64,000 nt of DNA from Anaerolineae bacterium (lineage in GTDB: Bacteria > Chloroflexota > Anaerolineae > B4-G1 > SLSP01). A model generated the notes under the pieces. It worked only from the letters and a program-made list of their open reading frames with translations, did not search any database and had not been told where the DNA came from. Made by a program: the position numbers and the translations under genes. Shown piece by piece: positions 7,954 through 30,125 of this stretch. Where the stretch lies: assembly GCA_035415725.1 (NCBI GenBank), contig DAOOGN010000001.1, positions 77,382 through 141,381 on the forward strand, written 5' to 3'. How positions within the stretch are numbered: position 1 is the stretch's first letter; each line of letters starts with the position of its first letter.

Positions 7954-10035
7954 ATGGATCGTGAGGTAGGACAAAGACTCGCCGACGTAGTTGCGACGTC
8001 GCATAAAAAACGACCGGCTCTGGGGATTGTGACCCATCAGATTTCTGGCGCAACGGCCTGGTGGCTCGGCGCGGCCGAAGTGGCGCGGCAGCAGGATGTG
8101 GACCTGTTTATCTTGAATGCCGGTAATGTAGGAGCGGAAGGCAACATCGACGATAACATTCCTTATGCAGTGCATCATCTGATCGATCCAGAACGTCTCG
8201 ATGCGTTGATTTTAGTGCAGTGGTGGCCTGCACGCCAGGTCTTTGAAGCGTTCTACAACCGCTATTACCGCCCGTTGCCGGTGGTGAATCTGCACCGGCA
8301 TTATGAAGGCTATCCCGGCGTTTCTGTGGATAACTCCAAGGGCATGATGAGCTTGCTGCGTCATCTCATCGAGGTCCACGGATATCGTCGTTTGGCCTAC
8401 ATCGCAGGTCCACCCGGCAACCCTTCGGCGGAGACGCGTTATGCGGCTTATGTGGCGGCCCTGGCGGAATATGACATTCCTTTAGACGAAAACCTCATCG
8501 TTCCCGGTGATTTTTCCGCGCCGTCCGGGGCTAACGCCGTGCGTATGCTCCTGGACGAACGGGGTTTACGCCCGGCACTCGATTTTGAGGTCATCGTGGC
8601 CGCGAACGACTATATGGCTTTGACCGCCTTGGAGGAACTCCAACAGCGCGGCATCCGCGTCCCCCTGGACGTGGCGTTGGTCGGGTTCGATGACGTGGCC
8701 GATAGCGCCTATGCCATGCCGGCTTTGACCACGGTGCGTATGCCCAATTACGAAATGGGGCAAACGGCGGCTGAAATTGCCTTGGCGATGATAAAGGGAG
8801 AACCATTCGAGCCATATACGCTGCTGCCGGGTGAAGTGGTCGTGCGTCAGTCGTGCGGCTGTTTCACCTCGCCGCTGGCCGACTCCAGCGAGTCGATCCA
8901 GATGCCGGTGGTCACTGGCGCGCCGCCCGCCGGTGGACCCCCAGACCTTGCCGGCGGCCCGCCTGGCGGTCCAACACCGGAACAACTCCAATATGCTATA
9001 GCTGAATTGTCGCAGAGCATAGGGCCGGCTGGAGCGGTCCTCCAGGCCAACTGGGCTGAGGAGATCCTCACGGCCTTCAGTGCGGCGCTGGCCGTCCCGC
9101 CGGATGGTACATCGGCCGCTTCCCGACGCTTGTTGGGCGTCCTTTATGACATTCTGCGACGATTATACCTCCACGGTTACGATATGCTGGGGGTGGGGCG
9201 GACGATGCTTTTTGTACTGCGGCGCTGCATGCAGCCCACCTTGGCCGACTTTCAACAGATGCGGCGCGCCGAGAATGTTTGGCAGCATGCCATGGCTTTT
9301 ATGACAGACGTGGCGCATCAGATGCAGTCGGTGCAACAACACGCTGCGGAGACTTACCTTGGGCAGTTGCACGCCATTGGCGAAAAGTTGATCACGACCT
9401 TCGATATGACACACTTGCTCGATTTGATCGCCCGCGAGCTGCCGCGGCTGGATATCCCCGGCTGCTACATCGCTTTGTACGAAGGGCCGCGACCTTCCCA
9501 TGAAGAGGTCCGGCTGGTGATGGCCTATAACGCCCAGGGACGTAACCCCCAGGGTGTCGAAGGGCGGCGTTACCGGGCGGGCAAGCTGTTGCCGGATGAA
9601 CTGTTGTTGCCTGAGCGGCCAGCGATGTGGGTGGTGACACCTCTGTACTTTCAGGAAGTGGCGCTGGGTTTTGCGTTGTTTGAAGCGGAGAAGATGCCGG
9701 GCGAAGTGTATGAAACGTTGGGCCATCAGATCAGTAGTGCGTTGATGGGCTCGTTGTTGGTGCAGCAGCAGGAAGAAGCGCAGCGAGAAGCGGAGGCCGC
9801 GCGCCGGCGGGCGCAGGCGACGTTGAGCGAGGTGTTGACCACCCGTTCCATAACTGACCAGGTGCGCCAGGCAGCAGACACCGAAGCTGTCCTGCGGGTG
9901 GCGTTGGAGTCGTTGAGCCAGGTGCTGGGTGCGACGATGGCGGTGGCCCGTCTGGGAACGCGCGAGCAGCTTCTGGAAGCCGCGGCCGGCGTCGAAACGC
10001 CGGAGTCTGTTACCGACAAAATTCTGGCACCATGA
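7954..10035 (+). CDS. Cytoplasmic LacI-type ligand-binding (PBP1) domain sensory protein lacking an HTH, with a Pro/Gly-rich linker, helical middle region, GAF-like domain and tail
   Basis: The PBP1 signature is LGIVTHQISGATAWWL...DVDLFILNAG...HGYRRLAYIAGPPGNPSAETRYAAY...VIVAANDYMALTALEELQQRGIRVPLDVALVGFDDVA...LTTVRMPNYEMG...VVRQSCGC. There is no N-terminal DNA-binding helix-turn-helix. The low-complexity linker is PPAGGPPDLAGGPPGGPTPEQ. Confidence 0.82.
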   Translation: MDREVGQRLADVVATSHKKRPALGIVTHQISGATAWWLGAAEVARQQDVDLFILNAGNVGAEGNIDDNIPYAVHHLIDPERLDALILVQWWPARQVFEAFYNRYYRPLPVVNLHRHYEGYPGVSVDNSKGMMSLLRHLIEVHGYRRLAYIAGPPGNPSAETRYAAYVAALAEYDIPLDENLIVPGDFSAPSGANAVRMLLDERGLRPALDFEVIVAANDYMALTALEELQQRGIRVPLDVALVGFDDVADSAYAMPALTTVRMPNYEMGQTAAEIALAMIKGEPFEPYTLLPGEVVVRQSCGCFTSPLADSSESIQMPVVTGAPPAGGPPDLAGGPPGGPTPEQLQYAIAELSQSIGPAGAVLQANWAEEILTAFSAALAVPPDGTSAASRRLLGVLYDILRRLYLHGYDMLGVGRTMLFVLRRCMQPTLADFQQMRRAENVWQHAMAFMTDVAHQMQSVQQHAAETYLGQLHAIGEKLITTFDMTHLLDLIARELPRLDIPGCYIALYEGPRPSHEEVRLVMAYNAQGRNPQGVEGRRYRAGKLLPDELLLPERPAMWVVTPLYFQEVALGFALFEAEKMPGEVYETLGHQISSALMGSLLVQQQEEAQREAEAARRRAQATLSEVLTTRSITDQVRQAADTEAVLRVALESLSQVLGATMAVARLGTREQLLEAAAGVETPESVTDKILAP

Positions 10036-30125: not shown

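Follow-up and report, generated by a model that had tools for sequence, protein, structure and literature searches.

LacI-type sensory domains without a DNA-binding head, joined to a globin-like/GAF module, in a sensor array of an Anaerolineae bacterium

The LacI/GalR regulators, among them LacI, PurR, CcpA and CelR, carry a core of the type I periplasmic binding protein (PBP1, or Venus-flytrap) fold, and the same fold, assigned to the same Pfam families, opens five proteins that we describe here from a 64,000-nt stretch of an Anaerolineae bacterium contig, DAOOGN010000001.1 (hereafter the window; about 58% G+C, with nearly every long open reading frame, or ORF, on the plus strand). The five proteins also keep the terminal strand of two hydrophobic residues followed by R-x-S and conserve equivalents of the ligand residues, but they differ from LacI/GalR in having neither helix-turn-helix (HTH) nor hinge, in being fused to signalling domains rather than binding DNA, in a signal that would exit through the C-terminus, and in two features specific to the new family, namely a one-residue insertion bearing H144 and a Cys-Gly-Cys (CGC) after the last strand. 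Built-in PBP1 sensors whose output is something other than an N-terminal LacI headpiece are found in Bacteroides hybrid two-component systems (BT1754), in AmiC and in E. coli XylR (PBP1 with a C-terminal AraC domain), as in the five proteins; however, the Bacteroides sensors are periplasmic and membrane-anchored, XylR still binds DNA, and none of these is known to have a globin-like plus GAF relay or the CGC. The non-haem globin sensors RsbR, pXO2-61 and BA2291, which act in stressosomes and in sporulation, resemble our proteins in sending a long C-terminal helix into the next domain, and RsbR ends in a STAS domain, as do 32 of the best 120 homologs described below, although the five window proteins have no STAS, sequence similarity to these sensors is undetectable, and the globin-like domain here stands between a PBP1 and a GAF domain. 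Tandem-GAF modules (PDE2/5/6, CyaB, NifA/Nlh, PtsP) join GAF folds by long helices, as here, but the first GAF of the window proteins is a degenerate one, shortened at its centre, and the chain ends in a truncated GAF start (linker, alpha1, beta1) rather than in an enzyme. The nearest literature context is a review of non-haem globins (PMC8717448), reviews have noted Peripla_BP domains in c-di-GMP enzymes (PMC8846402), and our literature search found no description of a PBP1-globin-like-GAF architecture.

The five genes, numbered here as sensors 1 to 5 in their order along the plus strand, lie at 7954..10035 (693 aa), 10165..13374 (1069 aa), 15802..18657 (951 aa), 21589..25827 (1412 aa; ATG at 21589, with a 17-nt overlap with the preceding gene) and 27240..30125 (961 aa; the protein used for structure models). 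As the original prediction had proposed from the sequence, all five begin with a LacI-type fold: Pfam reports Peripla_BP_3 at 99-116 bits in each (cut-off 26.5) and Peripla_BP_1 likewise above its cut-off, a phmmer search of the PDB with the sensor 5 domain returned LacI-family cores only, and Foldseek matched that domain to LacI, CcpA and CelR with TM scores of about 0.8. The domain spans 8008-8841 in sensor 1 (Pfam), 10237-11082 in sensor 2, 15874-16713 in sensor 3, 21649-22464 in sensor 4 and 27294..28139 in sensor 5 (aa 19-300, by Pfam, PDB phmmer and Foldseek). The other four proteins are 29-35% identical to sensor 1, and an identical copy of the sensor 5 protein is recorded in an Anaerolineae metagenome-assembled genome (MAG) and in a JGI metagenome contig.

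A Pfam scan found no HTH in any of the five proteins, neither the LacI family (PF00356) nor any other. The leaders ahead of the first PBP strand are 20-35 residues long and, because in-frame stops upstream confine them, a LacI headpiece of about 60 residues cannot fit; consistently, the PBP1 domains align to E. coli LacI from about its residue 60 onward, past both headpiece and hinge. Neither a hydrophobic N-terminal segment nor a signal peptide nor a membrane segment was detected in the five proteins, and the lack of an N-terminal hydrophobic segment places them in the cytoplasm. Both absences had been anticipated, and both hold. The five genes encode soluble cytoplasmic sensors with a LacI-type PBP1 domain and no DNA-binding head, and, because they have no HTH, they are not LacI-family regulators. 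HisKA/DHp and HATPase domains are also absent from the five by Pfam, the kinases of the locus being separate genes (19-1689 and 53679-60920).

The idea that the PBP1 domain feeds a GAF relay directly did not survive this analysis, since a stretch of about 300 residues, conserved among the five paralogs, always intervenes between the CGC and the first Pfam GAF. Fusion to canonical GAF domains (GAF, GAF_2 or GAF_3 above the Pfam gathering score) was borne out for sensors 2 to 5 and not for sensor 1, which consists of PBP1, the middle region and a C-terminal tail. Pfam assigned no family to the helical part of the middle region at E values up to 10, and NCBIfam gave sub-threshold LacI-type matches only. 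AlphaFold2 models of sensor 5, computed for aa 1-620 (pLDDT 88, pTM 0.84) and for aa 306-620 alone (pLDDT 93, pTM 0.81), give the order PBP1, CGC, globin-like domain, long helix, degenerate GAF, long helix. The all-helical domain, together with its long signalling helix (28212..28622, aa ~325-461), has a 3-over-3 globin-like fold that lacks a proximal histidine, and its fold matches are globin-like, pXO2-61 among them; because no histidine is conserved in it across the family alignment, we classify it as non-haem globin-like. Three non-haem globin-like families are known, RsbR, phycocyanin and photoglobin, and pXO2-61 binds a fatty acid (PMC8717448). The next domain (28635..29078, aa 466-613) is a degenerate GAF with a C-terminal long helix, for which Foldseek listed GAFs only and which a local profile comparison also supports (P 0.0017).

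Searching with residues 1-620 of sensor 5 gave 1590 matches, the best 120 of which each cover at least 90% of the query, while phmmer with the middle region alone gave 2479 matches among 1.84 billion representatives (1568 below 1e-10 and 498 below 1e-30). The middle-region matches almost always start near residue 300, and a PBP1 domain therefore precedes this region in the relatives as well. Local hidden Markov models (HMMs) detect PBP1 and the middle region in every full-length family member, the seeming exceptions being N-terminally truncated fragments, and because the two always occur together they constitute one module: PBP1, a non-haem-globin-like helical domain of RsbR/pXO2-61-like fold and a degenerate GAF form a single conserved three-domain input module. 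In sensors 1 to 4 its globin-like and degenerate GAF part lies at 8977-9789, 11146-11907, 16744-17586 and 22534-23439, respectively. Downstream of it stand a canonical GAF in sensor 2 (12331-12816), a GAF in sensor 3 (17710-18171), a GAF (23452-23943), two PAS domains (~23956-24708) and a second GAF (24745-25263) in sensor 4, and a canonical Pfam GAF in sensor 5 (29052..29564). Sensor 1 carries in addition a Pro/Gly-rich insert, PVVTGAPPAGGPPDLAGGPPGGPTPEQ, at 8905-8990 (aa ~318-345), between the CGC and the globin-like domain and in this paralog only.

In a scan of one genome per species, the module was found at 586 or more loci, most of them in Anaerolineae, Thermoflexales, Caldilineaceae and other Chloroflexota MAGs, with a few in Spirochaetota, Myxococcota, Bacillota and Moduliflexus bins. 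Our own count of outputs among the best 120 of the 1590 homologs comprises 44 GAF-only proteins, 32 with STAS, 23 histidine kinases (HisKA/HATPase), six with MCP and four with SpoIIE, a spread that points to a general input module serving several signalling outputs. About a quarter of the closest homologs (such as P0015-P0119) run PBP1, globin-like, GAF-like, STAS, that is, an RsbR-like order behind a sugar-type flytrap, and these may be stressosome-type sensors in Chloroflexota. Databases name the homologs either 'substrate-binding domain-containing protein' or 'DNA-binding LacI/PurR regulator', the latter wrongly. The architecture had been called unusual; it is indeed unnamed and without a description that we could find, but with at least 586 loci and about 2,500 cluster representatives it is not rare. 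What emerges is a widespread PBP1-based sensor variant with a previously undescribed globin-like/GAF relay and a His/His/Cys-Gly-Cys signature, in which a repressor-type pocket would be read out through the C-terminus and signalling outputs of at least five kinds follow. The large and so far unnamed family of one-piece cytoplasmic receptors, which comprises those ~2,500 representative clusters and extends over hundreds of species of Chloroflexota, offers a handle on metabolite sensing in the Anaerolineae, which are hard to culture and abundant in digesters and sediments.

The motif that closes the PBP1 domain was correctly read in all five translations: VVRQSCGC in sensor 1 (RQSCGC at 8845-8862), IVRRSCGC in sensor 2 (RRSCGC at 11086-11103), VIRESCGC in sensor 3 (RESCGC at 16720-16737), IVRRSCGCLD in sensor 4 (RRSCGC at 22513-22530) and VVRQSCGCLD in sensor 5 (R302-Q-S-C305-G-C307 at 28143..28160, where the last PBP1 strand meets the helical domain), or hhR[QRE]SCGC in general form. 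As a family motif, only its C-G-C half is specific; the R-x-S half is the generic end of a LacI-family core, seen also as LIVREST in an ancestral LacI structure and as VKRKT in LacI. The CGC itself corresponds to LacI T329-A331, where the chain leaves the last PBP1 core strand. Cysteine is scarce in the proteins of the array (0-0.9%) and a C-x-C at the junction is confined to the five PBP1 proteins, so the motif reflects homology and not chance. Among the best 120 homologs, all 120 have C-x-C and 119 have CGC; among full-length family members the count is 241 of 242, the exception (P0235) reading RRTCGY. In an HMM alignment of 263 family sequences (236-252 of them counted per position), C305 is kept in 252/252, G306 in 249/252 and C307 in 251/252, and the loss of SCGC from orthologs that would have spoken against the original prediction was not seen, C-x-C being retained in 251 of the 252 aligned sequences.

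That alignment also revealed three further invariant positions, H139 (237/237), H144 (237/237) and R164 (236/236); apart from these and C305, no polar residue of the 600-residue module is absolutely invariant. Both histidines, encoded in sensor 5 within 27654..27671 (HLIEVH), belong to the PBP1 C-subdomain: H139 is the common LacI-family histidine, and H144 is a family-specific one-residue insertion relative to LacI ('VHG' vs 'L-GH'), beside which position 146 is Cys or His in 76/237 sequences. By the topology of the fold, the histidine elements and the CGC would both be found in the C-subdomain at the end away from the cleft. This His2Cys2 signature (H139, H144, C305, C307) suggests a candidate metal site and presents a precise target for mutation. 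Alternatively, the CGC could act as a redox switch, a vicinal dithiol/disulfide or an inter-subunit disulfide gating signal transmission, such that each sensor would signal the presence of its ligand only while the cytoplasm of the anaerobe hosts is reduced (anoxic). C-x-C peptides can indeed be redox-active, both cysteines and the intervening glycine are near-invariant, the motif falls exactly at the domain junction, and the hosts are chiefly Anaerolineae of anoxic habitats. Yet a disulfide within C-x-C is strained and a comparatively strong oxidant, so that it would nearly always be reduced in the cytoplasm, no thioredoxin-like context accompanies the motif, and two co-invariant histidines would be left unexplained; we consider a redox switch unlikely.

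In the cleft, the residues that correspond to R197, N246 and D274, sugar ligands in LacI, are retained, the arginine (R164 of sensor 5) in 236/236 sequences and the other two as N/S/D and D/N, and the W220 equivalent is an aromatic residue in all the paralogs but sensor 3, which has N. Orthologs of sensor 5 are 74% identical at pocket-equivalent positions against 69% over the whole domain, and the five paralogs 24% against 41%. Pockets conserved among orthologs and varied between paralogs are what would be expected of working pockets of differing specificity. They also count against a reading in which the PBP1 domain is a dimerisation scaffold that senses no ligand, the true sensor being the globin-like domain (with a fatty-acid-like ligand) or the GAFs. 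Such a scaffold could be accommodated in a module that holds three potentially ligand-binding folds, one of which matches the fatty-acid-binding pXO2-61; however, the invariance of a ligand-contacting Arg, the retention of the Asn and Asp equivalents, and pocket positions that are held among orthologs and diversified among paralogs make it distinctly improbable.

The five genes belong to a co-directional, tightly packed plus-strand array of 20 output-less sensors (1686..53642), whose mutually unrelated inputs comprise MASE11, multi-transmembrane (5-8 segments), dCache-HAMP, PAS and the five PBP1 modules. At its 5' end stands a HAMP-GAF-HisKA-HATPase histidine kinase (19..1689, plus strand; N-terminus probably cut by the window edge), and a 2413-aa hybrid histidine kinase (53679..60920, plus strand), with at least five GAFs, HisKA, HATPase and two REC domains, closes it. 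Intergenic gaps of -17 to about +130 nt make the array operon-like. A Pfam scan detected no STAS domain in the five proteins or elsewhere in the window, and neither RsbS nor RsbT was seen in the window. All 20 array sensors end in a mini-GAF, which matches the C-terminal half of GAF models only, and then a tail some 50 residues long with the consensus 'TQRRAAREQ..EIT.RIRESLD.E.VL.TA..E....L.....V.L'; in the PBP1 proteins these lie at 9811-9960 (tail, sensor 1), 12973-13191 and 13183-13329 (mini-GAF and tail, sensor 2), 18301-18471 and 18466-18612 (sensor 3), 25432-25653 and 25645-25788 (sensor 4), and 29691..30056 (both, sensor 5). The same tail ends 63 of 258 family members, from many MAGs. 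Proteins with this tail occur in co-directional arrays (loci L004, L040, L053, L063, L064 and L068), and most module proteins that carry other outputs stand alone. Directly upstream of the tail arrays in L068 (ORF 1684-4068), L053 (781-3171) and L043 (3203-5494) lies, as it does in the window, a (dCache-)HAMP-GAF-HisKA(-HATPase) kinase, although for the L043 ORF the matches are limited to HAMP, GAF and a weak HisKA. This succession of kinase and tail array is a conserved operon layout that recurs in unrelated MAG loci, and kinase-flanked arrays with a common tail suggest how many inputs might be funnelled into one phosphorelay.

Taken as a whole, we favour, with somewhat better than even confidence, a reading of the five proteins as soluble sensors with a metabolite in the flytrap, a C-terminal relay, modulation of kinases, and a metal site formed by the CGC, possibly with the histidines. 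With the HTH and hinge lost, the signal would have to leave the PBP1 domain via its C-terminus and not its N-terminus. A small metabolite, most likely sugar-like and differing per paralog, would bind in the PBP1 cleft, and cleft closure would be transmitted across the CGC junction and on through the spine of helices in the globin-like and GAF-like domains, reaching the C-terminal part, here the GAF(s) and the GAF-stub tail common to all 20 array sensors. C305 and C307, possibly with H139 and H144, would form a metal site, structural or regulatory and of Zn type, coupling the flytrap to the downstream helices. The five proteins would most likely be accessory ligand sensors that modulate the operon kinases, or a common complex, by protein-protein contact; accessory sensors working with the operon kinases are the most economical reading of the tail proteins.

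Several points weigh against this reading. The analysis shows domain content, the lack of an HTH, conservation, distribution and operon layout; a bound ligand, the route by which it is coupled, an effect on the kinases and a metal site are inferred. Reasoning from type I PBP topology, 10-20 Å may separate the end of the histidine helix from the point where the last strand exits, and a mutual information scan with average product correction, of low power at an effective sequence number (Neff) of about 227, gave no coupling signal between the end of the histidine helix (130-152) and the CGC junction (296-320). The pocket positions of the N-subdomain come from a low-identity LacI alignment, and gene order is the one line of evidence that ties the tail to a kinase.

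A different role for the same cysteines would have the CGC motifs of two protomers bridged at the dimer interface by an Fe-S cluster or a metal ion, as with the C-x-C of some iron-responsive regulators, so that the module would also sense iron or oxygen. LacI-type cores are dimeric with both C-termini exiting on the same side, the C-G-C is near-invariant, and position 146 offers a Cys or His in 76/237 sequences, all of which would suit a bridge; the two core C-termini of LacI are not known to be adjacent to each other, however, and each chain has only two conserved cysteines, leaving the proposal very unlikely. That the five are ordinary LacI-family repressors whose HTH was overlooked through a wrong start codon or a frameshift, as JGI's automatic naming of many homologs ('DNA-binding LacI/PurR family transcriptional regulator') might imply, can be dismissed given the upstream stops that bound the ORFs to 20-35 leader residues, the Pfam scan that found no HTH family in any of the five, a LacI alignment that starts past the headpiece, the same start in more than 240 homologs from independent assemblies, and an AlphaFold2 N-terminus that is disordered until the first PBP strand.

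Returning to the tail, its HMM scores 49-73 bits at each C-terminus of the array and 7-37 bits at internal GAF starts, and over its whole length the tail (29910-30056 in sensor 5) corresponds to an inter-GAF linker plus GAF alpha1-beta1 (hhalign probability 89%, P 2e-6), the very part that the preceding mini-GAF lacks. Mini-GAF and tail could together be a circularly permuted or strand-swapping GAF; our literature search for permuted GAFs yielded nothing relevant, and mini-GAF plus tail, used as a query for homologs, retrieved short 'GAF domain-containing' fragments only. A separate candidate, the tail as a degenerate DHp/H-box acting as a pseudo-kinase decoy, was ruled out (hhalign P 0.3). 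More speculatively, the 60-kb locus could be a multi-input integration device, with 20 sensors, a mini-GAF/tail kept uniform by gene conversion, stressosome-like co-assembly on the kinases and inputs from five different metabolites, each gated at the exit of the flytrap by a His2Cys2 site of metal or redox type, a proposal that we regard as rather unlikely; if it were true, the mini-GAF and tail, as a permuted or strand-swapping GAF, may mediate the assembly.

We also made several observations on other parts of the array. An exactly identical 106-nt patch (27033-27138 and 29913-30018) forms the tail core of the neighbouring genes at 25824 and 27240, with flanks only about 50% identical, and is a gene-conversion tract that keeps neighbouring tails alike. 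An internal tail-like segment (37 bits, aa 781-829) lies in the middle of a 1454-residue PAS/GAF protein (40433-44797), which resembles the fused product of two formerly separate array genes. The shortest array members (25824-27191 and 44772-46196) consist of six transmembrane segments, mini-GAF and tail only, and the first ~400 residues of the hybrid kinase (53679-60920) have no Pfam match. Two genes of the array encode PF04392 (ABC_sub_bind) proteins, at 33603-34727 and 48052-49137, each just upstream of a membrane sensor (a dCache-HAMP-GAF protein at 34737 and a HAMP-GAFx5 protein at 49137, respectively), for which they may be extracytoplasmic ligand-presenting partners. Finally, a 66-nt direct repeat of 83% identity links the start of the first PF04392 gene (33608-33673) with a second copy beyond the hybrid kinase (61606-61671), where it adjoins a minus-strand gene at 61679-62797.

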